The position numbers and the translations under genes were made by a program. A stretch of DNA of 64,000 nucleotides, taken from assembly GCA_963796875.1 (NCBI GenBank), contig CAWCNL010000002.1:1153134-1217133 (forward strand). The letters are read 5' to 3'. This DNA is from an uncultured Actinomycetes bacterium. GTDB taxonomy: Bacteria > Actinomycetota > Thermoleophilia > Gaiellales > JAICJC01. Under the pieces are notes generated by a model. The model saw nothing but the letters and a program-made list of their open reading frames with translations. It was not told where the DNA came from and ran no database searches. Positions 1 to 12,461 of this stretch are shown here, in pieces. How positions within the stretch are numbered: position 1 is the stretch's first letter; each line of letters starts with the position of its first letter.

Positions 1-17
1 TCCTGGAGGCGACGCAC

Positions 18-1847
18 ATGTGTGGAATTGTTGGATATAGCGGACGGCGAGAGGCCTGCGGGCTGCTGGTCGACGGGCTCGCCCGGCTGGAGTACCGCGG
101 CTACGACTCGGCCGGCATCAGCCTGGTCACCGCCGACGGCATCGAATCGGTGCGGTCGGTCGGAAACCTCGATGCCCTGCGCGGCCGGGTGGCCGAGGAG
201 TGGGGGCAGGGCGCCCGCGCTCACACCGGCATCGGGCACACGCGCTGGGCCACCCACGGCGATGTGACCGAGGCCAACGCCCACCCGCACCGCAGCTGCG
301 ACGGGGCGGTGCACATCGTGTTGAACGGCATCGTCGAGAACCACGAGCAGCTGCGCGACGAGCTCACCCGGCGCGGCTGTGAGTTCAGCTCCGAGACCGA
401 CGCCGAGGTGGTGGCGCACCTGATCGGCTGCCGGTTTGCCGGACTCGACACGGCCACCGCGGCGGCCCGCGCGGCGAGCCACATGCGCGGCCACTTTGCG
501 TTCCTGGCGATCCGCCTGGCCGAGCCCGAGGTGCTCGTCGGCGCCCGGCGGGACTGCCCGATGGTGATCGGGGTCGACCGCGGCGAGGTGTTCGTGGGCT
601 CCGACGTGGCCGCCCTTCCGCCCGACATGCACCGCGTGCTGTTCGTCGCCGACGACGAGATCTGCTGCGTGCGGCCGGGACAGTTCGACCTGCGCACCCT
701 CGACGGCACGCCCGTGCACCGCGAACCGCAGCTGATCGAACGCGACCACTCGAGTGCCGAGCGCGGCGAGCACACCTCGTTCATGCGCAAGGAGGTCGCC
801 GATCAGCCCGACGCGCTGCGCCGCACCATCGCCGCGCACGTGGGTCACAGTCCGGTGACGGCCGGCATCGACGACGAGCTGCTGCGCACCGTGTCGCGGA
901 TCACCCTGACCGGCTGCGGCACGTCACACAACGCGGCGCTCTTGGGACGGCTGCTGATCCAGCGCTGGGCCGGGATCCCCGTGACCACGGCGATCGCCTC
1001 GGAGTGGTGCAGCTCGACGCCGCTCCTGGACGACGGTGAGCTGGTGATCGGCGTGACCCAGTCCGGCGAGACGCGCGACACGATCGCCGCTCTGCGGCTG
1101 GCCCGCAGCCTGGGCGCGCCGACCATCGCGCTGACCAACTCGAGTCTGAGCCAGGCGGCCCGCGAGGCCGATGCGGTGATCACAACCCACGCCGGGATCG
1201 AGGTGGGCGTGGCTGCGACCAAGACGTTCACCACGCAGGTGGCGGCGTTCGCGCTTCTGGCGCTGCATCTGGCGCGGTTGCGCAACGCCCGGCCCGCGGC
1301 CGAGCTGGACGAGCTGGAACGCGAACTCTGCCGGCTGCCCGGGCTCGTCACCGAGACGATCGCCGACACGGCGGCCACGATCACGGCTGCGGCGGCCCGG
1401 CACGCCGACCGGCCGCTCTTCATGTACCTGGGCCGCGACCTGGCCTATCCCGTGGCCAGCGAGGGCGCGCTGAAGATGAAGGAGATCTCCTACGTCCCGG
1501 CCGACGCGTATCCGGCCGGCGAGATGAAGCACGGCCCGCTGGCGCTGCTCAGCAGCGGCTCGCCGGTGGTGTGCGTGGCCACCGACTCGGCCGTGCTCGA
1601 GAAGCTCCTGTCCAACCTTTCCGAAGCGCGGGCGCGCGGCGCGACCACTCTGGTCGTCGCATCCGCCGGCCAGCATCGCGTCCGCGATTACGCGGACGCG
1701 GTGTGCTGGCTGCCGCCCGTACATGCCGATCTGCAGCCGGTGCTCGCGGTGGTGCCGCTGCAGCTGCTCGCCCTCGAGGTGGCAGAGGCCCGTGGCCTCA
1801 ACGTTGACCAGCCGCGCAATCTCGCAAAGACAGTGACGGTGGAATAA
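18..1847 (+). CDS. glmS: glutamine--fructose-6-phosphate aminotransferase (isomerizing)
   Basis: Intact 609-aa ORF. N-terminal MCGIVGY (catalytic Cys2 of Ntn amidotransferases), SIS-type sugar isomerase segments, C-terminal KTVTVE typical of GlmS. GGAGG RBS at 5-9. Confidence 0.95.
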   Translation: MCGIVGYSGRREACGLLVDGLARLEYRGYDSAGISLVTADGIESVRSVGNLDALRGRVAEEWGQGARAHTGIGHTRWATHGDVTEANAHPHRSCDGAVHIVLNGIVENHEQLRDELTRRGCEFSSETDAEVVAHLIGCRFAGLDTATAAARAASHMRGHFAFLAIRLAEPEVLVGARRDCPMVIGVDRGEVFVGSDVAALPPDMHRVLFVADDEICCVRPGQFDLRTLDGTPVHREPQLIERDHSSAERGEHTSFMRKEVADQPDALRRTIAAHVGHSPVTAGIDDELLRTVSRITLTGCGTSHNAALLGRLLIQRWAGIPVTTAIASEWCSSTPLLDDGELVIGVTQSGETRDTIAALRLARSLGAPTIALTNSSLSQAAREADAVITTHAGIEVGVAATKTFTTQVAAFALLALHLARLRNARPAAELDELERELCRLPGLVTETIADTAATITAAAARHADRPLFMYLGRDLAYPVASEGALKMKEISYVPADAYPAGEMKHGPLALLSSGSPVVCVATDSAVLEKLLSNLSEARARGATTLVVASAGQHRVRDYADAVCWLPPVHADLQPVLAVVPLQLLALEVAEARGLNVDQPRNLAKTVTVE

Positions 1848-1849
1848 CC

Positions 1850-3415
1850 ATGAAGCGAATAGCAACCGTGATGGCGGCCGCCACCCTCGGGGTGGCGGTC
1901 ACGGGTGCGATCGCCCCTGCGGCGTTCGCAGCGACCTGTACGGGAAAGACACCGACAGCGCTCTCGTTCACCCGTGCAAAGGGTCATGCCTCGGGCGTTC
2001 TGCACTGGAAGGCACCAGCGGTGCACCCGGCCGGAGCGTCGTATCGCACACTGCGAAACGGCGCGGTTATTGGTCAGACCAAGATGTCGCAGATGGCGAT
2101 TCGGGTCACGGCTGGCAACACGTACGTGTTCGGCGTGCGGGTCGTCGCGCCCAGTGGTGCGGTCTCTCCGTGCCATAACTCGATCAAGCGCGCGGTCACC
2201 TACTACAAGCCCACAGCTCCGAAGACCAGCAGCCTGCAATCGCGCACATCCGACGCGATCACCATCGCGTGGGGGGCCGGGGCCGGCGGCGATGCCCGAC
2301 TCACCGCCTACCGTATTCTGCGCAACGGCACGGTGGTTGGTCAGACCACCAAGCGCACCTACAAGCTCTCGAATCTGTTCTCGTCGACCAACTACACGAT
2401 CACCGTGAAGTCGGTCGACTCGCGCGGCGAGGTGAGTGCGGGCACCTCGCCGGCGGTGAAGACCGCGACGCTCGCGCCCACCCCGTCGACGGGCACCGCG
2501 CATGCCTTCATCCTCGCCAGCACCGACAAGAGCTTCGAGGACTTTCGCTCGCACTACAAGCGGTTCGGCGTGGTCTATCCCACGTACTACGACTGCCTCT
2601 CGAACAACACCATCACCGGCCAGAACGACACCCTGATCACCGGGTGGGCGCAGGCGCGCAAGGTGCTCGTGATGCCGCGCATCAACTGTCAGAGCCAGAC
2701 GGTGCTGCACGACATCCTGAACAACTCCACCGACCGCTCCGCCATCCTCACCCAGCTGGTGAACCTGGTGCAGGACAACGGCTACGACGGGCTCAACATC
2801 GACTTCGAGTCGGGCCAGGCGTCCGATCGCGACGCGCTCACCAGCTTCATCCAGACGCTCGCGAGCGACCTGCACGCGAACGGCAAGAAGCTCACCGTGT
2901 GTGTCGCCGCCGCCTACTACAACCAGCTGGTGGGCCGGCAGGGGTTCTACGACTACAAGGCGCTCGGCTCGGCCGCCGACTACGTGTTCGTGATGGGCTG
3001 GGGATACCACTGGGCCACCTCGGCGCCGGGTTCGATCGACGACATCACCTGGGAGAACCGGGTGGTCAGCTATGTCGACACCATGCCGCTCAAGTCCAAA
3101 TACATCCTGGGGCTCGGCATGTACGGCATGGACTGGCCAGACGGCGGCGGGCCGACCAACCGGGCCACGGCGCTCGAGTACGGGTCGATCCGCGCGTTGA
3201 TGCAGCGGGTGGACGCCACCCCGGTGATGGATCCCACCAGCGAGTCGCCGCACTTCTCGTACACCGAGAAGGGCGTCAGCCATGACGTCTGGTACCAGAA
3301 CGCGACGTCTCTCGGAACGCGGATCGCGCTGGCGGGCGCCAACGGCCTGCACGTGGGGTTCTGGCATCTTGGCGAGGAGGATCCCGCGCTGTGGGATCGT
3401 ACTGACATCCAATAA
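1850..3415 (+). CDS. secreted protein with two FN3-like repeats and a glycoside hydrolase family 18 (chitinase-like) domain
   Basis: 521-aa ORF with a signal-peptide-like N-terminus (MKRIATVMAAATLGVAVTGAIAPAAFA). Two ~90-aa repeats (..YRTLRNGAVIGQT.. / ..YRILRNGTVVGQT..). GH18 catalytic motif YDGLNIDFE. Starts 3 nt after the glmS stop. Confidence 0.8.
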   Translation: MKRIATVMAAATLGVAVTGAIAPAAFAATCTGKTPTALSFTRAKGHASGVLHWKAPAVHPAGASYRTLRNGAVIGQTKMSQMAIRVTAGNTYVFGVRVVAPSGAVSPCHNSIKRAVTYYKPTAPKTSSLQSRTSDAITIAWGAGAGGDARLTAYRILRNGTVVGQTTKRTYKLSNLFSSTNYTITVKSVDSRGEVSAGTSPAVKTATLAPTPSTGTAHAFILASTDKSFEDFRSHYKRFGVVYPTYYDCLSNNTITGQNDTLITGWAQARKVLVMPRINCQSQTVLHDILNNSTDRSAILTQLVNLVQDNGYDGLNIDFESGQASDRDALTSFIQTLASDLHANGKKLTVCVAAAYYNQLVGRQGFYDYKALGSAADYVFVMGWGYHWATSAPGSIDDITWENRVVSYVDTMPLKSKYILGLGMYGMDWPDGGGPTNRATALEYGSIRALMQRVDATPVMDPTSESPHFSYTEKGVSHDVWYQNATSLGTRIALAGANGLHVGFWHLGEEDPALWDRTDIQ

Positions 3416-3484
3416 TCGCAAATTGGTCGGACAAGTGACGCCCAACGTGCCAGGAAGTGAACCCGTGGGGCGGAATCCGTCGAG

Positions 3485-3517
3485 ATGAATAAAAGGGGTC
3501 TGACCCCTTTTATTCAT
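3485..3517. repeat. simple palindromic repeat, GGGGTC-N-GACCCC family (33-nt perfect palindrome)
   Basis: ATGAATAAAAGGGGTC T GACCCCTTTTATTCAT. Same family as 12452-12488 and 52185-52215. The A-tract/GC-stem/T-tract layout resembles a bidirectional intrinsic terminator. Confidence 0.85.
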
Positions 3518-3544
3518 GAGCGTTTCTGCGTTGTCCCCTTAACG

Positions 3545-3581
3545 AGCCGAGGCTCCCTGCAGCTAGGGAGCCTCGGCTTTT
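3545..3581 (+). terminator. intrinsic terminator-like hairpin with T-tail
   Basis: AGCCGAGGCTCCCT-gcagct-AGGGAGCCTCGGCT followed by TTTTG. The 14-bp GC-rich stem lies between the convergent GH18 gene and the minus-strand gene ending at 3633. Confidence 0.6.
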
Positions 3582-3632
3582 GGGGGTAACGGCCCCCCCG
3601 GAGAAGGCCGTTGGGTGGAGCCGCGGTTTGGG

Positions 3633-4127
3633 CTACGGCGTGGTTGCGGTGTACGTCAGCGTGTCGCTGAACGGATTACCCGACACCGCGTCGCCCCACT
3701 GCAGCGCAAGTGCGTACTGCAGCGGCACGTTGGTGACGCCTGCGGCGCCCGTGCCGATCGTCTGACCGGCATTGCTCAGAGTCACGTTGGTGGCGCCGTT
3801 GGTGATCGTCATCCGGCTATCCGGAATCGTCAGCGGCGTGGGGGTGGTCGTGTCCTTGAAGTTGCCGGTGCCGTTGACCTTCAGCGTCCAGCCGGCGTTG
3901 GAAGAAACCGTCGCGGTGGTTGCCGAGGGGACAGTGGTCGTCGATAGCGGGCTGACGGAGCCGAACGAGAACGACGCCGCGCTCAGGGACAGCTGGATGG
4001 CGGCCTGGTTGGTAAAGGTCACCGTCTGGTTCTGCGTTACCGTGGTCGCCGCCGTAGCGGGAGCCACAGCCACCGCAAGAGCGGCGGCGCTGACGCACGC
4101 GGCCAGCGCGATGCGTGCTCGGGACAT
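3633..4127 (-). CDS. small secreted WxL-like domain protein
   Basis: Internal ATG at 4127 of ORF 3633..4574, preceded by AAGGAGAA. Signal peptide MSRARIALAACVSAAALAVAVAPATA. T/S/N-rich beta-type sequence with SNAGWTLKV and a C-terminal ..FSDTLTYTATTP. Paralogous to the C-terminal domain of the 4312..5787 protein. Confidence 0.7.
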   Translation of the reverse strand: MSRARIALAACVSAAALAVAVAPATAATTVTQNQTVTFTNQAAIQLSLSAASFSFGSVSPLSTTTVPSATTATVSSNAGWTLKVNGTGNFKDTTTPTPLTIPDSRMTITNGATNVTLSNAGQTIGTGAAGVTNVPLQYALALQWGDAVSGNPFSDTLTYTATTP

Positions 4128-4311
4128 TGAGCTTCTCCTTGAGACTGTTGGGACGGAACGCCGGCCGGTTTCGGACGACGCAGAACCAATCGGCCCCCCA
4201 CCGGGGGACACCCATGCCCCTTTTGGGGGATTCCCCGCCGCCCTCGGCCGGGTGATGCCCCTGTTTCCGTGTTTGGCAGGAACCTGCGTGTGAATTGCGA
4301 ACGGGGAAGCG

Positions 4312-5787
4312 ATGCAAAACCACCTTGCGCGGTTCGCCGTTCTGGCCCTGGGCCTGACGGCGGCCGTCGTGCTGTCCCCGGCCGCGGCATTCGCGGCCAC
4401 CAATCTGATCCAGAATCCTGGCTTCGAAACGCTGGGCGCAACCACCCAAACCATGTTCTCGGACACGCTCGCCGACATGAGCGCGTGGACGGTGACGAGC
4501 GGTGGAGCGACCGCCTCCGGCGGTGTGCTGACCCCTACCGGTGCCAAGAAGACCTCGGACATCGCCGTGATCACCGGATCGGATCACACCACCAACGGCA
4601 CGTTCCAGGTGCAGGGCATCCCCACCAACGTCGTCGCGGGCCTCTCCGGCGGCCTGGTGTTCCGCTATCAGGGCACCGGGTCGTTCTACGCGTGCACGGT
4701 GACCAGCAATGCGCTGCAGCTGGTCGAGCGCGACAGCGGCGTGGACACGGTGCTCAAGACCTCGGCGATGAGCGTGCAGGCGGGCTTGCCCGGCTGGCTG
4801 CGCGTGACCGCGACCGGGTCGTCGCTGACCTGCGCGGCGTACGGCAACACCAACAACGCGCCGGGCACGCTGATCGCGAGCGTCACGACCACCGACACCA
4901 CGTACACCTACGGCGCGGTGGGCGTCTACGACACCAACACCACCAACGCCGCCGGAAAGATGCTGACGTTCGACAACCCGACGATCACGGGCACGGGGCC
5001 CGCGAGTTGGGGAGCGCTGACGACGACGGCAGGGACGCCCGGCGAGACGGTCGATACCGTGCAGCCGAACACCGGCACCACCTCGCTGCGGCTCTACGCC
5101 GGCGCCTCGACCGACGACGGCTACGTCGCCCAGACGGGGATCGCGGTCACGGCCAACACGACGTACACGCTCTCGGCCAGCATCGCGACTGCCGGTCTGT
5201 CTGCAGCGACCGGCGCCCAGGTGATCGCGATCGAATCGCCCAGCAACACCCAGACCGTGCTCTCGAGCAGCTCGGCAACGGCCGGGTACACGCTCTACTC
5301 CACCACCTTCACCACCAGGACCAACACGACGTCGGTGGCAATCCGGGTGCGGCTGCTTGGCGCCGGCACGGCCAACTTCGACGATCTATCGCTGGCAGTC
5401 GCCAACACCGTCACCCTTGCGCTCAACACCGCCACGGTCGGACTGGGCAACATCTCGCCGCTGACCTCGCCGCTCACACTGCTCTCGGCGACCACCGCGA
5501 CGGTGGTCTCGAACGCCGGGTGGACGCTCTCGGCACTCGGCACCGGCCCGTTCACCGACGGCGCCGGCGGGCACTCGATCGCGCTCTCGGCGCTCGCGTG
5601 GCGGCGCAACGGCACCACCACATTCACCCCGTTCACCACAACCGCGACCACCGTCACCACCGGCACCGCAACCACCCCGGCAGGCGTGGCGACTCCCGTC
5701 GACTACCGCCTGACCGTCGGCTACTCCGACCCAGCCTCGTCCACCCCGTACTCAACGACGATCACCTACGTCGCCACGACCCCGTGA
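4312..5787 (+). CDS. secreted multidomain protein: ConA/LamG-like jelly-roll + CBM4_9-like module + C-terminal WxL-like domain
   Basis: 491-aa ORF with signal peptide MQNHLARFAVLALGLTAAVVLSPAAAFA. NLIQNPGFE and a second CBM-like stretch ending NFDDLSL. The C-terminal ~135 aa share ATTATVVSNAGWTL and ..STTITYVATTP with the 3633..4127 product. Confidence 0.7.
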   Translation: MQNHLARFAVLALGLTAAVVLSPAAAFAATNLIQNPGFETLGATTQTMFSDTLADMSAWTVTSGGATASGGVLTPTGAKKTSDIAVITGSDHTTNGTFQVQGIPTNVVAGLSGGLVFRYQGTGSFYACTVTSNALQLVERDSGVDTVLKTSAMSVQAGLPGWLRVTATGSSLTCAAYGNTNNAPGTLIASVTTTDTTYTYGAVGVYDTNTTNAAGKMLTFDNPTITGTGPASWGALTTTAGTPGETVDTVQPNTGTTSLRLYAGASTDDGYVAQTGIAVTANTTYTLSASIATAGLSAATGAQVIAIESPSNTQTVLSSSSATAGYTLYSTTFTTRTNTTSVAIRVRLLGAGTANFDDLSLAVANTVTLALNTATVGLGNISPLTSPLTLLSATTATVVSNAGWTLSALGTGPFTDGAGGHSIALSALAWRRNGTTTFTPFTTTATTVTTGTATTPAGVATPVDYRLTVGYSDPASSTPYSTTITYVATTP

Positions 5788-5798
5788 GGTAACCAGCC

Positions 5799-6815
5799 AT
5801 GTCCCGCCGTCCCATCATCGCCGTACTCGCCCTGCTCCTGCTCGGCGCGCTGGCCGCTGTCCCCATCGCCGCGGCCACCGACCAGCCGACCACACCGCTC
5901 AGCCTGGGTGTCGCGCCCTCCAAGCTCCAGCTGCGGCTGAAGCCCGGGCACACTGTGCGAGCCAATCTCAAGATCTACAACAAGGGCTCCAAACCCGTGA
6001 CCATCGACGTGTTCCCGCAGGACTACACGGTCGACATGGACTCCAACGTGAAGTTCCTGCCGGCCGGCACGCTGCGTGGATCGGCGGCGCCGTGGACGAC
6101 GCTCTCCGAGACGCTGCTGAAGGTTCCCGCCGGGGGGTATCGCAACGTGGTCGCGACCATCCGCGTACCGCGGAGCATCCCGCCCGGAACCCACACCCTG
6201 GCAATCCTCTTTCGGTCGCACACCATCACCTCTTCGGCGGGCCTGCGCTACCAGTCTGCGGTGGCGTCGTTGATGGCAGCGGGCGTGACCGACGCCAACG
6301 GCGGAGGGCTGGTGCTGAAGGCCGGCGTGCTCGCCAAGTCGACGTCGGTGCAGTGGAAGTCGCTGCTCTCGGTGCGCTCGCCCAGCGGGCTGATCCACGC
6401 CCTGTTCAAGCCGACCATCACCACCAACATCGCTGTGGTCAACTCGGGCAACACGTTCTTCAATATCCTGCACGGCGCGGTGACCTACAAGAAGGGCCTC
6501 TCGCTGGGCGGCTCTGGCACCACCATCAAGGCGCCGCACTACACGATCCTGCCGGGCTCGACGCGCCTGATCACGATCGCGTGGACGAGTGCGCCGTTCA
6601 TCGGCTGGTCGACGGTGCAGACCAGCTTCTACTACAACCCGACCACCGCGCTCTCGCTGACCTCGCCCGATCGCGTGCTGATCATCCCGTGGAACCTGCT
6701 GTTCGTGGTCACGGTGATGACCGCGCTCGTGGTGGTCTGGCGGCTGATGCGCGCCCGCCGCCGGCGCCGCGCGCAGGCTCCGGGCCGCAAGGTGGTCTGG
6801 GCCAACAGCAAGTAA
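5799..6815 (+). CDS. DUF916/DUF3324-like cell-surface protein with C-terminal membrane anchor
   Basis: 338-aa ORF with a signal peptide. Two beta-sandwich-like halves (..LRLKPGHTVRANLKIYNKGSKPVTIDVFPQDY.. and ..VPAGGYRNVVATIRVPRSIPPGTHTLAILF..). C-terminal TM helix followed by RLMRARRRRR. This architecture accompanies WxL genes in Firmicutes csc clusters. Confidence 0.65.
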   Translation: MSRRPIIAVLALLLLGALAAVPIAAATDQPTTPLSLGVAPSKLQLRLKPGHTVRANLKIYNKGSKPVTIDVFPQDYTVDMDSNVKFLPAGTLRGSAAPWTTLSETLLKVPAGGYRNVVATIRVPRSIPPGTHTLAILFRSHTITSSAGLRYQSAVASLMAAGVTDANGGGLVLKAGVLAKSTSVQWKSLLSVRSPSGLIHALFKPTITTNIAVVNSGNTFFNILHGAVTYKKGLSLGGSGTTIKAPHYTILPGSTRLITIAWTSAPFIGWSTVQTSFYYNPTTALSLTSPDRVLIIPWNLLFVVTVMTALVVVWRLMRARRRRRAQAPGRKVVWANSK

Positions 6816-6822
6816 GCACCCG

Positions 6823-6855
6823 ACGCATACCTCGTGCCAGGCACGAGGTATGCGT
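6823..6855. repeat. palindromic repeat, GTGCC-N-GGCAC family (33-nt perfect palindrome)
   Basis: ACGCATACCTCGTGCC A GGCACGAGGTATGCGT, starting 8 nt after the stop of the 5799..6815 gene. Confidence 0.85.
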
Positions 6856-7012
6856 TCGCCTGCGGTGCTAGAGTCACCGATGCCGGTTTGCGCTTGTCCG
6901 AGAACGCGCCGGTCCGCCGCGTCGCCAACGTCATCGTGAGTCCGCCTCCGCGCATGCGCATCCGCGCGCGCCCAGGCTGGGCCCTATCCGACCCGCGAAA
7001 GAGTGTCTCAAC

Positions 7013-7827
7013 GTGTCCGCAGAACCCGCAGTCGAAGTACATGAGCTGACAAAGAAGTTCGTCCGCCGTGACGGCTCGCGGCGGCGTGGTCACAAGCAGT
7101 GGGCCACCGCGCTTGACGCCGTGTCGTTCACCATCGAGCGCGGCGAGTGCGTGGCGATCCTCGGCCAGAACGGCTCGGGCAAGTCGACGCTGGTGCGGCT
7201 GCTCTCGACGCTGCTCCTGCACGACGGCGGCACGGCGCGGGTGTTCGGCGTGGACGTGTTCAAGCATCCCCGCCAGGTGCGACGCATGGTCAACCGGGTG
7301 TCGGTCGAGGCGTCGTTCTTCAAGCGGATGTCGCCGCTCGAGAACCTCAGCTACTCGGCGCGGTTCTACGGGCTGGGGATCAAGGAGACGCGCACGCAGA
7401 TTCCGCTGATCCTGGAGCGGGTCGGGTTTCCCCCGACCGCGCGACCGAGCCGATGGAGGATCTGTCGCGCGGAATGCAGCAGAAGATCGCGCTGGCCCGG
7501 GCGCTGATGACCTCGCCGATGCTGCTGCTGCTGGACGAGCCGACCACGGGGCTCGATCCGCGCTCCAAACGCGAAGTGCAGGCGTTCGTGGCGTCGATCC
7601 GCGAGTCGACCGACGTGACCACGCTTCTGTGCACCCACGACATGGTCGAGGCCGGAGCGATGGCCGATCGCGTCGGGATTCTCCACAACGGCCGGCTGCT
7701 GTGCCTGGAGCCGACCGCCGACATCCTGGCCCGGTACGAGGCCGACGATCTGGAGGGCGCGTTCCTGGCCGCCACCGGTCGCGAGTTTGAGGACGAGTTC
7801 GACGATCGGGAGGTGGCGCAGCAATGA
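7013..7827 (+). pseudogene. ABC transporter ATP-binding protein (ABC-2/DrrA-like), one frameshift
   Basis: The N-terminal part is in ORF 7013..7507 (Walker A GQNGSGKST). The C-terminal part is in ORF 7147..7827 (signature LSRGMQQK, Walker B LLLLDEPT). The frame switches at the C-run ~7430-7434. Confidence 0.85.
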
Positions 7828-7834
7828 TGAAGGG

Positions 7835-8647
7835 ATGCGTCGAGAGGCGATCGGCTTTGCCGGCATCGTCGAGCGAAACACCTATCTGATCCGGCGGTTC
7901 GTGTGGTGGGAGCTGGCGTGGTTCCTCTACACGATCGCCAACACGCTCACGATCGTCTTCATCGCCAAGGGCGTGGAGGCCTCCGGCGGCCACATCGACG
8001 TGAACCAGACGATGATCGTGCTGCTGATCGGCGCGGTCGTGTGGTCGTATCTCGGGCTGATCTTCGAGATCGTCACCGAGACGGTCGCCTGGGAGCGGTG
8101 GGAGGGCACCATCGAATACACGTTCATGGCGCCGCTGTCGCGCCCGGCGCATCTGCTGGGCATGGGCGCGTTCGCGGTGCTCTACGGCGTGCTGCGCACC
8201 ATCCTGCTGTTCGGCGTGGTGGCGTGGATGCTGGGCGTGAACTTCAGCTAACGCGAACTTCACCGGCGCGATCGTGGTGCTGGCCGTGTCCTCGGTGTCG
8301 TTTGTGGGCATCGGCATGATGACCGCGGTGCTGCCGCTGATCTCGCCCGAGAAGGGCACGCAGCTGGGGTTCATCGCGCAGGGCATGCTGCTGGTCGTCT
8401 CGGGTGTCTATTACCCGGTGTCGGTGCTGCCGCAGTGGATGCAGTGGCTGGCCAAGATCTCGCCGGCCACCTATACGCTCGAGGGGGCCGGCACGCGATC
8501 GTGGACGGTGCGGCGCTGGGGGCGCTGTGGGGCGACATGTGGCCGTTGATCGTGATCGGCGTGATCTCGATCCCCGGGGGGCTCTTCATCTTCAACCGTG
8601 GCGAGGTGTACGCCAAGCGCCACGGCCGCCTGAAGCGATCGGGGTAG
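7835..8647 (+). pseudogene. ABC-2 type transporter permease, two frameshifts
   Basis: Hydrophobic protein spread over ORF 7787..8251 (from ATG 7835), ORF 8274..8549 and ORF 8435..8647. Frame switches at ~8230-8250 and at the G-run 8483-8487. Confidence 0.75.
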
Positions 8648-8744
8648 TGCATAAAGGGGTCAGCCACCTTTTGTGCATCCGTTGCGTTGGTTGCAACCCT
8701 TGGCCTCCGCCCATGCACAAAAGGTGGCTGACCCCTTTATGCAT
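8648..8744. repeat. composite palindromic element (~97 bp; 31-nt arms, 34-nt spacer), TGCA-terminus subtype
   Basis: Left arm TGCATAAAGGGGTCAGCCACCTTTTGTGCAT (8648-8678) is the reverse complement of 8713-8743. Near-copy at 45949-46041. Begins 1 nt after the permease stop. Confidence 0.9.
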
Positions 8745-8761
8745 CGTGGCCTGCGATAGGG

Positions 8762-9733
8762 TTGCGGCATGACCGCAATCGATTCCGCCGAGACACCGCG
8801 CCGCTCGAGGTGCTCACGATGGGCCGTATCGGCGTGGACATCTATCCGCAGACCGCGGGGCCGCTCGAGGGTGTCGAGGCGTTCTCGCGGTTCCTCGGCG
8901 GCACGGCGACCAACGTCGCAGTGGCCGCCGCCCGGCTGGGCCGCCGCAGCGGTGTGGTGACCAGGGTCGGCGACGACCCGTTCGGCCGCTACGCGCGCAC
9001 CGCGCTCGAGGGGTTCGGGGTCTCGACCCGCCACCTGGGGATCGATCCCGATCTGCCCACGCCAGTGGTGTTCGCCGAGCTCGACCCGCCGGCTGACCCC
9101 ACCATCTGGTTCTACCGGTACCCCAAGGCGCCCGACATGACGCTCGCCACCGCCGAACTCGACCGCCCCGCGATCGAGGCGGCCGACATCTTCTGGGCCA
9201 CCGGCACCGGGCTGGCGGACGAGCCCAGCGCCACGGCCACGCGCACCGCGCTCGGCTGGCGCGACCCGGCCGCGATCACGGTGCTCGATCTGGACTGGCG
9301 GCCGGGGCTCTGGCCCGACCCCTCCGCCGCGCCCGGCCGCTACCGCGAGGCGCTGCGGCACGTCTCGGTGGTGGTGGGAAACCGCGCCGAGACGCAGGCG
9401 GCGGTGGGCACCGACGATCCCGACGCGAGCGCCGATGCACTGCTGGCGCTAGGCGTGCGGCTGGCGGTGGTGAAGCTGGGTGCCGACGGTGTGCTGGTGG
9501 CCACCTCCGAGGGCCGCGAGCGAGTTACCCCGCTGCGCGTCGACGTGGTCAACGGCCTCGGCGCCGGCGACGCGTTCGGCGGTGCGCTCTGCCACCGGCT
9601 GCTGGCAGGAGACGATCCCGCCGCCGCCGTGCGGTTTGCCAACGCCGCCGGCGCCTACGTGGTGGGCCAGCTGGCCTGCGCCGACGCCATGCCCACCGAA
9701 TCTCAGGTCACCGCAATCATGGAGCAACGATGA
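8762..9733 (+). CDS. iolC: 5-dehydro-2-deoxygluconokinase (PfkB family)
   Basis: 323-aa ORF with ..LTMGRIGVDIYPQ.. and the PfkB motif GAGDAFGGAL, followed by iolB and iolD. The start is uncertain (TTG 8762, ATG 8819, or ATG 8769 in another frame; see findings). Confidence 0.8.
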   Translation: MRHDRNRFRRDTAPLEVLTMGRIGVDIYPQTAGPLEGVEAFSRFLGGTATNVAVAAARLGRRSGVVTRVGDDPFGRYARTALEGFGVSTRHLGIDPDLPTPVVFAELDPPADPTIWFYRYPKAPDMTLATAELDRPAIEAADIFWATGTGLADEPSATATRTALGWRDPAAITVLDLDWRPGLWPDPSAAPGRYREALRHVSVVVGNRAETQAAVGTDDPDASADALLALGVRLAVVKLGADGVLVATSEGRERVTPLRVDVVNGLGAGDAFGGALCHRLLAGDDPAAAVRFANAAGAYVVGQLACADAMPTESQVTAIMEQR

Positions 9734-10608
9734 CGACCGACTCAACTGTGCTGCACATCCCCGCCGGCGCCGCCGCCGAGGGCGGTGATCCGCTGGCACT
9801 GACTCCGGAGCGCTGCGGGTGGGAGTTCTGCGGGCTGCGGGTGATCGAGCTGGAGCCCGGGCACAGCCGCGATCTGGCCACCGGCGGCGACGAGCTGGCG
9901 GTGCTGCCGCTGGAGGGCGGGCTGAGGGTCGAGGTGGAGGGCGCCACCCACGATCTGGAGGGCCGCGAATCAGTGTTCGACCGGGTTACCGACGCCGTCT
10001 ATCTGCCCCGCGACACCGAGGCCCGGCTGGTGGCCGACCGCCGCTGCCAGGTGGCGCTGCCGTCGTGTCCGGCGCGCACCCGCCGCGAAGTTGCCTACAT
10101 CGATGCCCGCGCCGTGGCCATCGAGATCCGCGGCGCCGGCCGCTCGACCCGGCAGGTGACCAACTTCCTGACGCCCGAGGTCGCGCTGCCCGATCGGCTG
10201 CTGTGCTGCGAAGTGCTGACGCCCCGCGGCAACTGGTCGAGCTATCCGCCGCACAAGCACGACACGCCCGGCGGCGTCGAGGCGGTGCTCGAGGAGATCT
10301 ACTACTTCCGCGTGGAGGGTCCAGACGGCATGGCCGCGCACCGCACCTACGACCTGGAGGAGGGGTGGGACGTCACCGTCACGATCGGCGACGGTGACGT
10401 GTTCCTGATCCCGCGCGGGTATCACGGCCCGTGCATGGCCTCGCCCAACAGCGCCCTCTGGTACCTGAACGTGCTCGCCGGCCCCGAGCCCGAGCGATCG
10501 ATGGCGATCAGCGACGATCCTGCGCACGCGTGGATCCGGCAGAGCTGGGAGGCAGAACCCCGCGACGAGCGCGTGCCCATGACCTCGGCCTACGGGAAGC
10601 ACGCATGA
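9730..10608 (+). CDS. iolB: 5-deoxy-glucuronate isomerase
   Basis: 292-aa cupin-type ORF overlapping the iolC stop by 4 nt. Sits in the conserved iolC-iolB-iolD context. Confidence 0.8.
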   Translation: MTTDSTVLHIPAGAAAEGGDPLALTPERCGWEFCGLRVIELEPGHSRDLATGGDELAVLPLEGGLRVEVEGATHDLEGRESVFDRVTDAVYLPRDTEARLVADRRCQVALPSCPARTRREVAYIDARAVAIEIRGAGRSTRQVTNFLTPEVALPDRLLCCEVLTPRGNWSSYPPHKHDTPGGVEAVLEEIYYFRVEGPDGMAAHRTYDLEEGWDVTVTIGDGDVFLIPRGYHGPCMASPNSALWYLNVLAGPEPERSMAISDDPAHAWIRQSWEAEPRDERVPMTSAYGKHA

Positions 10609-12461
10609 GCGACACCGTGCGGCTCACCACCGGACAGGCCATCGTCCGCTTTCTGGCGGCGCAGTGGACGGTGCGTGACGGCGTCGAGCGACCGCTCTTT
10701 GCCGGGGTGCTCGGAATCTTCGGGCACGGCAACGTCGCGGGCCTCGGCCAGGCGCTGATGCAGGAGCGCGACACGCTCACCTACGTGCCCGCGCGAAACG
10801 AGCAGGCGATGGTGCACATCGCCTCGGCGTACGCCAAGGCGTCCAACCGCATGCAGGCGTGGGCCTGCACGTCGTCGATCGGCCCGGGCGCCACCAACAT
10901 GGTCACCGGCGCGGCGCTTGCCACCATCAACCGGCTGCCGGTGCTGCTCTTGCCCGGCGACGTCTTTGCCAACCGCCGGCCGGGGGCGGTGCTGCAGCAG
11001 CTCGAGCAGCCCGGCTCGCTCGAGACCAGCGTGAACGATGCCTTTCGTCCGGTGTGCCGCTACTGGGATCGCATCTGGCGCCCCGACCAGCTGCCGTCGG
11101 CGCTGCTTGCGGCCACCCGGGTGCTGACCGACCAGGCCGAGACCGGAGCGGTCTGCCTTGCGCTACCGCAGGATGTGCAGGCCGAGGCGTGGGACTTCCC
11201 CGTCGAGCTGTTTGAGCAGCGCAAGTGGGTGATCGACCGGCAGCCGCCGCCGCTCGAGCGCCTCGACCGGGCCGCCGAGTTGATCCGCGACGCGCGCCGG
11301 CCGGTGATCGTGGCCGGCGGCGGAGTGATCTACAGCGAGGCCACCGATGCCCTGCGCGCGCTGGTCGATGCAACCGGAATCCCGGTGTGCGAGACCCAGG
11401 CCGGCAAGGGCGCGATGCCCTACGACCACCCTGCCGCCCTCGGCGCGGCCGGTGCCACCGGCACGTTTGCCGCAAACGTGGTGCTGCGCGACGCCGACCT
11501 CGTGATCGGCGTCGGCACCCGTTACAGCGACTTCACCACCGCCTCGCAGTCGGCCTTTGCCGCCGACGCGCGGTTCGTCAACCTGAACGCGGCCGCGGTC
11601 GACGCGCACAAGCAGTCCGCGCTGCCCGTGGTGGGCGACGCGCGCGCCGCGCTCGAGCTGCTGGCAGCCGCGCTCACCGGGCATGCGGTGGACGAGGGCT
11701 ACCGCGCGCGAAATGCCGAGCTCGTGCGCGAGTGGGACGCCGAGGTCGAGCGGCTCTACTCCCGCGGCGGCGGCCCCATCTTCGCCCAGTCGACAGTGAT
11801 CGGCGCGGTCAACGATCTGTCCCAGCCCGAAGACGTGGTGGTGTGCGCGGCCGGCAGCCTGCCCGGCGACCTGCACAAGCTGTGGCGCACGCGCGACCCC
11901 AAGGGCTACCACCTGGAGTACGGCTACTCGTGCATGGGCTACGAGCTGCCCGGCGGCATCGGCGTGCGCATGGCATCGCCCGCACGCGAGGTGTTCGTGA
12001 TGGTCGGCGACGGCAGCTGGCTGATGATGCCGGGCGAGCTCGCCACCGCCATCCAGCAGCACATCAAGCTCGTGATCGTCCTGATCGACAGCGGCGGGTA
12101 CGCGTCCATCGGCGCGCTCTCCGACTCGGTCGGCACGCAGCGGTTCGGCACGCAGCTGCTCGATGTCGACGGCCAGCCGCTGGGCATCGACCTGGCCGCG
12201 AATCTCGAGAGCTACGGCATCGACGTGCTGCGGCCGCAGACGATCCCCGAGCTGCGCGAGTCCGTGGCAACCGCGCGGGCGGCCATGCAGACCACCGCGA
12301 TCTACGTGCGCACCGATCCGCTGGTCGGCGTGCCCGGCTACGAGTCGTGGTGGGACGTACCGGTCGCCGAGGTCAGCACCGTCGAGACGGTGCAGCAGGC
12401 CCGCGCCGCCTACGAGGCCGCCTTGGCCAAGGTCCACCGCCACCTCAAGCCCCCTGAATAA
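10605..12461 (+). CDS. iolD: 3D-(3,5/4)-trihydroxycyclohexane-1,2-dione acylhydrolase (ThDP enzyme)
   Basis: From ATG 10605 (ATGA overlap with the iolB stop). MSDTVRLTTGQAIVRFL.., ThDP-binding fold, 618 aa. Confidence 0.85.
   Translation: MSDTVRLTTGQAIVRFLAAQWTVRDGVERPLFAGVLGIFGHGNVAGLGQALMQERDTLTYVPARNEQAMVHIASAYAKASNRMQAWACTSSIGPGATNMVTGAALATINRLPVLLLPGDVFANRRPGAVLQQLEQPGSLETSVNDAFRPVCRYWDRIWRPDQLPSALLAATRVLTDQAETGAVCLALPQDVQAEAWDFPVELFEQRKWVIDRQPPPLERLDRAAELIRDARRPVIVAGGGVIYSEATDALRALVDATGIPVCETQAGKGAMPYDHPAALGAAGATGTFAANVVLRDADLVIGVGTRYSDFTTASQSAFAADARFVNLNAAAVDAHKQSALPVVGDARAALELLAAALTGHAVDEGYRARNAELVREWDAEVERLYSRGGGPIFAQSTVIGAVNDLSQPEDVVVCAAGSLPGDLHKLWRTRDPKGYHLEYGYSCMGYELPGGIGVRMASPAREVFVMVGDGSWLMMPGELATAIQQHIKLVIVLIDSGGYASIGALSDSVGTQRFGTQLLDVDGQPLGIDLAANLESYGIDVLRPQTIPELRESVATARAAMQTTAIYVRTDPLVGVPGYESWWDVPVAEVSTVETVQQARAAYEAALAKVHRHLKPPE

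Follow-up and report, generated by a model that had tools for sequence, protein, structure and literature searches.

Three neighbouring genes in a 64,000-nucleotide stretch of DNA from an uncultured Gaiellales actinobacterium (the whole stretch is called the window below) form what we consider, with a probability of about three in four, a remote homologue, unannotated until now, of the WxL cluster of Firmicutes, serving glycan-binding surface display and not host adhesion. [quoted passage not shown] Read in this way, the cassette is a new, strongly divergent variant of the WxL/WxLIP system known in lactobacilli, enterococci and Listeria.

The initial annotation described three signal-peptide genes, and the ORF list indeed holds frames of exactly 164, 491 and 338 aa, here termed the small, large and third genes (Table 1). 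GC3 is 0.85–0.92 in all three frames, consistent with real coding, and hydropathy profiles show a hydrophobic N-terminus in each protein and a second hydrophobic segment (~299–320) in the third only. The small gene lies on the minus strand, divergent from the plus-strand large and third genes, an orientation absent from the initial annotation. AAGGAG stands 7–8 nt upstream of its ATG; the promoters of the small and large genes are presumed to lie in the intergenic region that separates them, in which no match to the sigma-70 consensus was found. The GH18 and small genes converge, and the two hairpins that separate them (3485–3578) are, from their sequence, likely terminators; a simple terminator scan listed neither.

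Table 1 Features of the cassette and its flanks (window coordinates)
Feature	Position (nt)	Residues	Strand	Description or basis
Secreted FN3-GH18 enzyme	1850–3415		plus	521 aa; Glyco_hydro_18 E 6.5e-23, fn3 E 1e-7 (Pfam)
Hairpin 1	3485–3517			perfect, AAAAGGGGTC-a-GACCCCTTTT, bidirectional-looking; inverted repeat I3 or I6, 100% complementary
Hairpin 2	3545–3578			perfect, 14-bp GC-rich stem then TTTT; inverted repeat I3 or I6, 100% complementary
Small WxL-like protein	3633–4127		minus	164 aa; ORF, paralogy with large protein
Small, signal peptide		~1–26	minus	
Small, mature domain			minus	single, 138 aa, β-rich, acidic, pI 4.6
Small, first motif	~3876–3902		minus	SNAGWTLKV
Small, C-terminal motif	3636–3671		minus	FSDTLTYTATTP
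Divergent intergenic region	4128–4311			small (minus)/large (plus); presumed promoters of both
Large WxL-like protein	4312–5787		plus	491 aa; ORF
Large, signal peptide	4312–4395	1–28	plus	
Large, β-rich domain 1	4396–4956	29–215	plus	
Large, CBM_4_9 module (PF02018)	4975–5352	222–347	plus	Pfam
Large, C-terminal WxL-like domain	5380–5784	357–491	plus	ends YSTTITYVATTP; paralogy with small protein
Third gene, WxLIP-like membrane anchor	5799–6815		plus	338 aa, mature pI 11.3
Third, signal peptide		1–26	plus	
Third, DUF916-like Ig domain	5880–6227	~28–143	plus	
Third, second Ig-like domain	6246–6683	~150–295	plus	
Third, IIPW motif and TM helix	6690–6758	~298–320	plus	
Third, Arg-rich tail	6759–6812	321–338	plus	

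The order small(s)-large-third recurs, amid differing flanks, in four related metagenome contigs (L001, L071, L073 and L075; 45–96% identity), the relatives bearing database names of Gaiellales MAGs. Because of this recurrence the arrangement is not due to chance and, provided that one accepts the homologies described below, the gene content and adjacency of a WxL cluster are matched in the window and in all four contigs. Comparable cassettes, mostly annotated as hypothetical, are found on plasmids of Streptomyces, Arthrobacter, Curtobacterium, Clavibacter and Deinococcus.

As judged by sequence profile and predicted fold, both of which show a strong link, the third protein is homologous to WxLIP. 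Its 338 residues fall within the published size range, with a signal peptide and a C-terminal TM helix at the expected ends. The AlphaFold model (pLDDT 77.5) places a second β-sandwich at ~150–295 and a helix at 298–325 that is followed by RARRRRR; together with the hydropathy profile it agrees with the two β-sandwich halves, C-terminal TM helix and Arg-rich tail described initially. PF06030 (DUF916) scores 16.4 bits on the protein (E 0.0099; profile positions 20–118 of 121), below its Pfam gathering cut-off of 27.3 bits, and matches 9 of the 29 close homologues at E ≤0.1 and 39 of the 115 remote relatives at E ≤1e-3, two of these slightly over the cut-off. PF11797 (DUF3324) had no Pfam match in the third protein or its homologues. 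In HHalign, the close family aligned to 55 canonical WxLIPs at 94.2% (P 1e-7), and the third protein with its 115 remote relatives at 99.2% (E 1e-19) over 232 columns and both domains, this extended alignment reaching the DUF3324 region (template columns 29–285). When canonical loci were scanned with the A1 HMM, all of the top 15 ORFs were WxLIPs. The conserved N-terminal motif of WxLIP, NQIDKxxxYFDLK (PMC10599100), is absent from the third protein, which carries an invariant G-x-APSK-x-Q-xx-L-x-P-G on those columns of the HHalign alignment. About 4,900 cluster representatives match the third-protein profile.

The fold comparison leads to the same family. The best three PDB matches of the third-protein model in Foldseek were 9i25_C, 9i1y_B and 9i1y_A (E 6e-10 to 1e-9, probability 1.0), which belong to solved EfmWxLIP1 structures (9i25 being 'WxLIP from E. 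faecium locus A bound to long WxL') and are the same entries that a control canonical WxLIP reaches by sequence. The TM-scores to WxLIP are modest (0.35–0.43) because the inter-domain geometry and the TM helix depress the global fit. Right behind WxLIP ranked the chaperone-usher chaperones CfaA, CsuC, YadV, EcpB, Caf1M and FimC (E 1e-9 to 1e-6), as would suit a pilus- or fibre-like assembly: the third protein would serve as a membrane-tethered PapD-like chaperone for subunits that join by donor-strand exchange, the small protein supplying the major subunit and the CBM-bearing large protein the tip adhesin. The AlphaFold model of the small protein (all-β, low confidence, pLDDT 63) has the pilins EcpA and Ena as its best PDB matches, its N-terminal third is poorly predicted alone (pLDDT <50 at residues 48–70), as expected if the fold needs a donated strand, and L073 carries two copies of the small gene. 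We nevertheless judge such an assembly improbable: the pilin matches (E 0.01) fall short of significance, the likeness to chaperones may stem from nothing more than the common two-Ig-domain fold and ranks below that to WxLIP, and neither the cassette nor its conserved flanks encode an usher, a sortase or any further polymerisation machinery. It overlaps the WxL/WxLIP explanation and does not exclude it. Of the fold searches that the initial annotation had called for, that with the third protein matches WxLIP best, and the small protein has no significant match in the PDB.

The paralogy proposed for the small protein and the C-terminus of the large one is confirmed by BLASTP, in which the small protein aligns to large residues 367–491 with 39% identity over 126 aa (E 1e-13). 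Both contain (V)SNAGWTL and end in ...T(L/I)TY(T/V)ATTP, and each ends with the WxL-like domain, which follows the signal peptide directly in the small protein and additional N-terminal domains in the large one. No Pfam or NCBIfam model for WxL, DUF916 or DUF3324 exceeded its threshold in any of the three proteins; of the profile searches suggested initially, only that for CBM_4_9 passed its cut-off. At E ≤10, PF13731 (gathering cut-off 25 bits) matched neither the small protein nor the C-terminal domain of the large one, nor any of 12 homologues; on controls it gave 210–220 bits for canonical small WxL proteins and only 29 bits for a canonical large-WxL C-terminus. Taken by themselves, the curated models would have overturned the WxL idea, but more sensitive and independent tests back it. 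HHalign matched the small family to canonical small WxL with P 6e-5 to 6e-6 when signal peptides were kept and P 4e-4 when they were trimmed; the second motif alone was not significant (P 0.03), and all negative controls gave P >0.15. The score of 35.8 compares with 11.8 ± 2.3 (maximum 20.3) for a column-shuffle null (z ~10). HMMs built from Pfam-verified canonical proteins (65 small WxL, 16 large WxL and 55 WxLIP), run over 1235 ORFs, ranked the cassette ORFs first, with the small/large ORFs as the top 5, and in the reciprocal scan of 1816 ORFs with the window-family HMM, WxL ORFs made up 19 of the top 25, compared with a background of 5%.

The two families also share colinear motifs, namely LxLxxxxxFG, AGWxLxV..(N/q)F and, closing the protein, (F/Y)xxTLT(Y/W)...P. 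The WxL domain is defined by a pair of Trp-x-Leu motifs, of which the second lies close to the C-terminus; an Asp (W1-8), an Arg (W1-6) and a GTxAG turn are conserved ahead of the first (PMC9772566). In the window family the first motif is present, its Trp (W80) being invariant in 19 sequences in the context WTL or WHL; the second-motif position reads T-Y-T/V-A, that is Y-x-A, and the Tyr to which the initial annotation drew attention is invariant (Tyr159). The Asp, Arg and GTxAG turn are missing, the sequence before the first motif being ATV-SSN-AG-W, so that of the turn only AG-W is kept.

Could this likeness have arisen by convergence in Thr/Ser/Ala-rich β-strands, within an unrelated lineage-specific secreted family, the third protein alone being a membrane protein of generic Ig fold? 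The small and large proteins do consist to 52–55% of T, S, A or G, the HHalign probability with trimmed signal peptides is only 33%, and the curated HMMs are silent. In a set of 5.8 billion proteins the small family has no more than 71 members, all lacking PF13731, and none of its homologues examined (n = 12–71) has a Pfam domain. Yet controls that keep the composition (column-shuffled and reversed) score far below the real alignment, the ORF scans are highly specific in both directions, and the third protein is strongly tied to WxLIP by profile and fold; moreover, the same logic of a small protein plus a large one with the domain at its C-terminus would need to have originated twice beside homologous WxLIP genes. 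We regard convergence as very improbable. The WxL/DUF916 assignment of the initial annotation is supported by the profile-profile alignments, the third-protein fold match and the two-way ORF scans. For the small and large proteins the sequence data modestly favour a WxL-domain link, weaker than that of the third protein to WxLIP and short of any one match that would conventionally count as significant.

The cargo of the large protein points to glycans. Its CBM_4_9 module, recognised as CBM4_9-like from the start, scores 27.5 bits (E 4.4e-6) against a Pfam gathering cut-off of 25.9 bits, and the orthologues in L073 and L071 reach 30 and 22.6 bits. By contrast, a ConA/LamG-like module that had also been claimed found no support from any tool: large residues 29–215 matched none of LamG, Laminin_G_3 and DUF1080 in Pfam at E ≤1, and a PDB sequence search was empty. 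The sole Pfam match in domain 1 is a weak HpiC1-like one (residues 33–79, E 0.0016), and no relation between domains 1 and 2 was detectable in an alignment of the four orthologues. Pfam confirmed the annotated secreted GH18 upstream (catalytic motif DGLNIDFE); the gene adjoins the cassette in L001 and L075 and is missing in L071 and L073. Because only some related loci have it, GH18 is context, outside the core cassette.

In L001 and L075 the cassette comes after a chitin-synthase-like GT2 gene, a polysaccharide deacetylase gene, glmS and FN3-GH18, in this order; the window, which begins at glmS, has glmS-GH18-cassette; GH114 lies upstream in L073, and PilZ-domain genes lie near the cassette of L071. 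Such neighbours would fit a large-protein CBM that binds a chitin- or PNAG-like polymer that the GT2, deacetylase, GlmS and GH18 neighbours produce and trim, so that the cassette would tether a self-made GlcNAc-type exopolysaccharide and anchor the matrix instead of capturing external plant or fungal glycans. This proposal touches the ligand only and not the nature of the cassette. We think it unlikely, since the neighbourhood is unlike in L071 and L073, and members of CBM_4_9 (CAZy families) mostly bind β-glucan and xylan.

Under the WxL/WxLIP reading, all three proteins, each with its signal peptide, would be exported by Sec. The C-terminal helix would hold the third protein in the cytoplasmic membrane, the Arg-rich tail facing inward and the two Ig-like domains, whose fold and WxLIP homology are shown above, lying outside. 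The WxLIP helix has been proposed to insert into host membranes (PMC9772566, PMC10599100); here it would most simply anchor the protein in the cell's own membrane. The DUF916-like domain may bind and complete the WxL-like β-sandwich of the small protein and of the large C-terminus, a step modelled on the E. faecium WxLIP-long WxL complex. The complex would be seated non-covalently in the wall, and the large N-terminal modules, including CBM_4_9, would face outward and bind glycan.

WxL clusters have been portrayed as a device of Lactobacillales and Bacillales for adhesion to animal hosts (PMC9772566, PMC10599100). The occurrence of a complete cassette in a soil-type, deep-branching actinobacterium argues against this view. 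With a carbohydrate-binding cargo, glycan-active enzymes adjoining in some genomes and no host, the conserved WxL/WxLIP core suggests a generic surface-anchoring platform. The cassette also shows that current Pfam/NCBIfam models miss entire branches of both partner families, and counts of 'DUF916 alone' are thus probably artefacts; Table S5 of PMC10599100 has 'DUF916-only' entries for Streptomyces and Micromonospora. The divergent sequences mark the truly constrained residues (first Trp, FG strand, C-terminal aromatic and terminal Pro), and three protein families so far 'hypothetical' in database sources gain names. More tentatively, and at odds short of even, WxL/WxLIP could be an ancient, widespread module and no host-adhesion speciality of Firmicutes: a chaperone-like protein anchored in the membrane would keep β-sandwich cargo that lacks a strand at the cell surface. 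The ~4,900 representatives, and the majority of 'DUF916-only' genes in phyla such as Actinomycetota and Deinococcota, would then have cryptic WxL-like partners that present models overlook, the Gaiellales-type domain would be a new partner family, and the chaperone-usher likeness would reflect a shared donor-strand mechanism.

Three known systems bear comparison with the cassette. Chaperone-usher chaperones (PapD/FimC/CsuC/CfaA) share the two tandem Ig-like domains and a small β-sandwich partner that probably needs a donated strand; unlike them, the third protein is tethered to the membrane through a helix at its C-terminus, and the cassette has no usher and a host of a monoderm-type phylum. 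The plasmid pairs of Actinomycetota and Deinococcota (Streptomyces, Kitasatospora, Arthrobacter, Curtobacterium, Clavibacter and Deinococcus) likewise come from high-GC hosts and place a small secreted protein directly 5' of a DUF916-like protein of 300–350 aa that carries a TM helix and a tail rich in Arg. Their second WxL motif (THSV, TLSL, TFTA) is, like that of the window family, degenerate, some loci (L080, L081 and L082) have a larger paralogue, and glycoside hydrolases sometimes adjoin (GH43 in Clavibacter). The plasmid small proteins, however, link clearly to canonical WxL (HHalign 94.7–96.6%) and keep a VTDxRagtxGW turn that the window family lacks; with signal peptides trimmed, the two groups do not align significantly (P 0.076), and only the Deinococcus protein matches the window-family HMM (E 2e-6). 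PGAP names ('WxL domain-containing', 'DUF916 domain-containing') appear on a few plasmid genes and on no window-family gene.

[quoted passage not shown] In contrast to these, all three cassette proteins score under the WxL/WxLIP Pfam cut-offs, Y-x-A takes the place of W-x-L as second motif, and the mature small domain, at 138 aa compared with ~180–200 aa, is ~50 residues shorter, without the Asp/Arg/GTxAG turn and a Pro-rich N-terminal insert. An invariant APSKLQxxL replaces NQIDKxxxYFDLK in the third family, and the small gene is inverted. Csc clusters often, though not obligatorily, include an LPXTG protein, whereas no frame of the 64-kb window has an LPXTG-type C-terminal sorting signal, in line with the initial annotation. 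The large-protein modules are carbohydrate-binding in place of LRR, adhesin or Big, and the cassette comes from a Thermoleophilia-type actinobacterium, high in GC and probably free-living, and not from a gut commensal. Shared with the Csc clusters are a domain-only small protein, a large protein with the same domain C-terminal behind functional modules, and a ~340-aa partner in which a signal peptide, two Ig-like domains and a TM helix precede a basic tail. The pairing of an acidic small protein with a basic WxLIP, the first W-x-L, the C-terminal ...TLT-aromatic-...P end and, in the predicted model, the fold of the solved EfmWxLIP1 are likewise retained.

The three cassette genes have exactly the lengths of the initial annotation (164, 491 and 338 aa; hereafter the small, large and third proteins), and a GC3 of 0.85-0.92 in their frames supports coding. 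The small gene is divergent from the large and third genes, across a 184-bp spacer, and convergent with the FN3-GH18 gene, the secreted upstream neighbour named originally. All three proteins carry a basic, hydrophobic, AxA-type signal peptide, in line with the signal peptides noted initially. A second hydrophobic segment (~299-320), followed by RARRRRR, is found only in the third protein; hydropathy, this tail and a helix at residues 298-325 of its AlphaFold model agree with the C-terminal TM helix and Arg-rich tail described before, showing a type-I membrane topology. The proposed paralogy was also borne out, as BLASTP aligned the small protein with residues 367-491 (the last ~125) of the large protein at 39% identity (E 1e-13), demonstrating that the two have a C-terminal domain in common. 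The CBM4_9-like module of the large protein was recovered at residues 222-347 (CBM_4_9, 27.5 bits, above the Pfam threshold). In keeping with the reported lack of an LPXTG partner, no LPXTG-type signal occurs across the whole 64-kb window. The small and large proteins are acidic (pI 4.6) and the third very basic (pI 11.3), a pattern also described for clusters of L. plantarum and Listeria (PMC10599100). Rfam gave no family at gathering score in the window (1-64000), and a sigma-70 scan of the cassette region no promoter match.

Features of the window, of two related metagenome contigs (L001, L075) and of plasmid loci from Deinococcus sp. NW-56 (L077) and Streptomyces sp. ADI95-16 (L082)
Locus	Feature	Coordinates	Strand	Description
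Window	glmS	18-1847		window starts here
Window	FN3-GH18 gene	1850-3415		two N-terminal FN3-like stretches
Window	replacement segment	3441-3522		~82 bp in place of the L075 1.58-kb segment
Window	perfect hairpin	3485-3517		inverted repeat between GH18 and small genes; AT-rich 16+16 palindrome
Window	13-nt inverted pair	3524-3536 / 4173-4185		92%; flanks small gene
Window	perfect hairpin	3545-3578		inverted repeat between GH18 and small genes
Window	inverted segment	3632-4235		small gene and upstream region
Window	small protein gene	3633-4127	-	164 aa ORF
Window	large protein gene	4312-5787	+	491 aa ORF
Window	third protein gene	5799-6815	+	338 aa ORF; begins 11 nt past large gene stop
Window	ABC-2 type exporter pair	7013-8549		ATPase and permease
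Window	inositol-catabolism set	8762-12461		PfkB kinase (iolC-like), KduI/IolB-like, TPP enzyme (iolD-like), Gfo/Idh/MocA dehydrogenases
L001	GT2 and deacetylase genes	1-2257		precede glmS-GH18
L001	counterpart of inverted segment	5769-6382
L075	GT2 and deacetylase genes	1-1691		precede glmS-GH18
L075	extra segment	5144-6723		1.58 kb between GH18 and small gene; genes of 137 aa and 324 aa (weak Metallophos match)
L077	DUF916-like gene and flanks	4944-10517
L082	ORF missing from gene table	2798-4828		~676 aa

Pfam and NCBIfam searches of all three proteins returned zero matches to WxL (PF13731) and to DUF3324 (PF11797), and nothing above threshold in sets of 14 and 29 homologues. The third protein reached 16.4 bits against DUF916 (PF06030 'WxLIP_PGBD'; cut-off 27.3, E 0.0099), with nearly the full profile covered. 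On standard curated HMMs alone the WxL/DUF916 assignment would fail, and deeper testing was therefore undertaken, which supported it, less strongly for the WxL-like domain. The families themselves are small: a search of 5.8 billion proteins with the third protein yielded 33 relatives. None of these carries a Pfam domain, and two bear NCBI names as Gaiellales MAG proteins, which together with a GC content of about 70% suggest a Gaiellales-type (Thermoleophilia, Actinomycetota) organism. The small protein had 12 relatives at first and 71, none with PF13731, when an enlarged-alignment profile was run over the same 5.8 billion proteins, a search that yielded no PF13731-annotated bridge and nothing beyond its own family. 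Against PDB sequences, HMM profiles of the small- and third-protein families gave no match at E <= 10 and phmmer with the large protein gave noise only; domains 1 and 2 of the large protein showed no relation to each other.

The third protein is a homologue, by fold and by sequence, of the WxL-interacting proteins (WxLIPs), which combine DUF916, DUF3324 and a TM helix. As a reference we retrieved 68 Lactobacillales/Bacillales loci (the canonical loci) via the published NQIDKxxxYFDLK motif and extracted 55 WxLIPs, 65 small WxL proteins and 16 large-WxL C-termini, samples of which were checked by Pfam (WxL 210-220 bits, PF06030 144 bits, PF11797 156 bits) and against PDB entry EfmWxLIP1. HHalign matched the close third-protein family to canonical WxLIPs at 94.2% (P 1e-7) over the DUF916 part, and the window protein together with remote relatives at 99.2% (E 1e-19) over 232 columns spanning both domains. 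When the close-family HMM was run on all 1,816 canonical-locus ORFs, the top 15 were all WxLIP genes. The AlphaFold model (pLDDT 77.5) comprises two beta-sandwiches, matching the two halves noted initially, plus the helix, and the three PDB chains closest to it are WxLIP structures from E. faecium (9i25_C, titled 'bound to long WxL', and 9i1y; E 6e-10). A profile built from 29 close relatives and scanned against 1.84 billion cluster representatives (50% identity) matched 4,934 at E <= 1e-3 and 630 at E <= 1e-10, most of 300-350 aa with the same signal peptide, two-domain, TM and basic-tail build. PF06030 was matched at E <= 1e-3 by 39 of 115 full-length remote relatives, by far the commonest family, and a few score slightly over its cut-off.

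The profile matches (P0046-P0194) also take in numerous low-GC proteins that share the F-x-[VI]-IPW, TM and basic tail, and some with a fused zinc-ribbon, TPR or LysM-like C-terminus. The next-best structural matches of the model (m270b3bc414eb) are chaperone-usher chaperones (CfaA, CsuC, YadV, EcpB, Caf1M, FimC and DraB; E 1e-9 to 1e-6), a resemblance hinting that a WxLIP may work like a tethered PapD-type chaperone.

Sequence comparison also supports, less strongly than the WxLIP link, a WxL-like domain common to the small and large proteins. The HHalign match of the small-protein family to canonical small WxL proteins scored 35.8 (P 6e-5), against 11.8 +/- 2.3 (maximum 20.3) for column-shuffled and 14.1 for reversed profiles, and was centred on the first WxL motif (SNAGWTLKV..NFK versus GT.aGW.L.Vk..qFk). 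With a 59-sequence alignment it reached 85% (P 6e-6), to which signal peptides contribute part; with signal peptides trimmed it was 33% (P 4e-4). A relaxed alignment was colinear over every conserved block, namely the LxLxxxxxFG strand, motif 1, the L..xMTIT strand and the C-terminal (F/Y)xxTLT-aromatic...P. Canonical large versus small WxL, the positive control, gave 99.4%, and either family versus WxLIP, the negative controls, P > 0.15. The most persuasive tests of this putative domain are unbiased ORF scans in both directions. Canonical small and large WxL HMMs, run on all 1,235 six-frame ORFs from the window and four related contigs, had the small and large proteins of the cassette as their best matches. 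Reciprocally, the window-family HMM without signal peptides ranked WxL-type ORFs as 19 of the 25 best (best E 0.0014) among the 1,816 canonical-locus ORFs, of which they make up 5% (probability ~1e-19, a binomial estimate). Against WxL identity, the second motif reads Y-x-A, with the Tyr for Trp remarked on initially, and alone is not significant in HHalign (P 0.03); the Asp/Arg/GTxAG turn is absent and the domain is shorter. The small protein also has a poor AlphaFold model (pLDDT 63), with no significant Foldseek match in the PDB.

The small(s)-large-third order recurs in four metagenome contigs, with third-protein identities of 45-96%. In L001 (57%), GT2 chitin-synthase-like, polysaccharide deacetylase, glmS and FN3-GH18 genes lie upstream; L075 (96%) has the same neighbourhood, with two additional genes after GH18. 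L071 (45%) is without GH18 and has PilZ genes close by, and L073 (49%) carries two small-gene copies, GH114 upstream and a transposase downstream. Because its order is kept across such differing contexts, the cassette is an autonomous unit; its GH18 association is lineage-specific, not obligatory. Compared with L001, L071 and L073, where the three genes are co-directional, the window has the small gene together with its upstream region in the opposite orientation. A phase-variable invertible switch was considered and rejected: flanking inverted repeats amount to just one pair at about chance level, and the small gene is likewise inverted in L075, which is 94-96% identical. Since only that pair flanks it, the segment resembles an old inversion.

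The window and L075 differ between GH18 and the small gene by an indel; the palindrome there is unusual at 70% GC. Metallophosphatases and DUF916 genes are reported to be frequent neighbours of 'Ang-2' metal-binding domains (PMC12537917). Together, the GT2, deacetylase, glmS and GH18 genes look like a set for GlcNAc-polymer synthesis and trimming, of which the GT2 and deacetylase region is cut off in the window. The GH18 catalytic motif, D-G-L-N-I-D-F-E, has Asn for the middle Asp of DxxDxDxE and retains the last Asp and Glu. Downstream gene calls rest on Pfam labels of syntenic L075 genes.

A tblastn survey of plasmids recovered DUF916-like and small-protein pairs in Streptomyces, Kitasatospora, Arthrobacter, Curtobacterium, Clavibacter and Deinococcus. 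Used as queries, the small protein itself and the third-protein profile match P0125 had no plasmid match. Most pairs are annotated 'hypothetical', with a few PGAP names ('WxL domain-containing' in Curtobacterium; 'DUF916 domain-containing' in Arthrobacter, Clavibacter and Streptomyces). The Clavibacter pair sits between two GH43 genes. The actinobacterial small proteins match canonical WxL at 94.7-96.6% in HHalign and have T-H-S-V or T-L-S-L as the second motif; the second Trp is therefore usually lost outside Firmicutes. The Deinococcus small protein matches the window-family HMM (E 2e-6). A further HHalign link, from the window family to the actinobacterial plasmid proteins (89.6%), fell to P 0.076 after signal-peptide trimming and was discounted.

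In the Streptomyces locus, the ORF directly upstream of the annotated DUF916 gene matches the canonical small-WxL HMM (E 2e-8) and therefore probably encodes a large WxL protein; its flanking genes are those of a glycoside hydrolase, a DUF4073 protein, a calcium-binding protein and an S8 peptidase. The Deinococcus DUF916-like gene has no obvious TM tail and a Pro/Gly-rich end, and is flanked by three genes, for proteins of 292 aa (ending ...ATLTYTLTSN...), 190 aa (ending ...MTFTALALP and matched by the window-family HMM) and 1013 aa (with SdrD-B/CarboxypepD_reg repeats).

By analogy with the E. faecium model (9i25 title), the DUF916-like domain of the third protein would bind and complete the WxL-like sandwich, the complex would be retained at the wall or membrane, and the N-terminal modules of the large protein would bind glycan. 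Anchoring of the third-protein helix in the cell's own membrane is favoured over insertion in a host membrane, because the organism is most likely free-living.

Our data thus support the initial reading of a WxL-like/DUF916-like surface cluster, strongly for the WxLIP and less so for the WxL-like domain, and support a strongly divergent variant that carries carbohydrate-binding cargo and escapes current models. The main texts of two studies place the WxL system essentially in Lactobacillales/Bacillales (PMC9772566, PMC10599100); in Table S5 of the latter, Streptomyces and Micromonospora already appear with 'DUF916-only' proteins and Sphaerobacter with a DUF916+WxL pair. The cassette is not categorically new, because its architecture is known and less divergent Actinomycetota relatives are partly annotated already; the wider implication is that the WxL/WxLIP system would be far more widely distributed than described and not host-specific.
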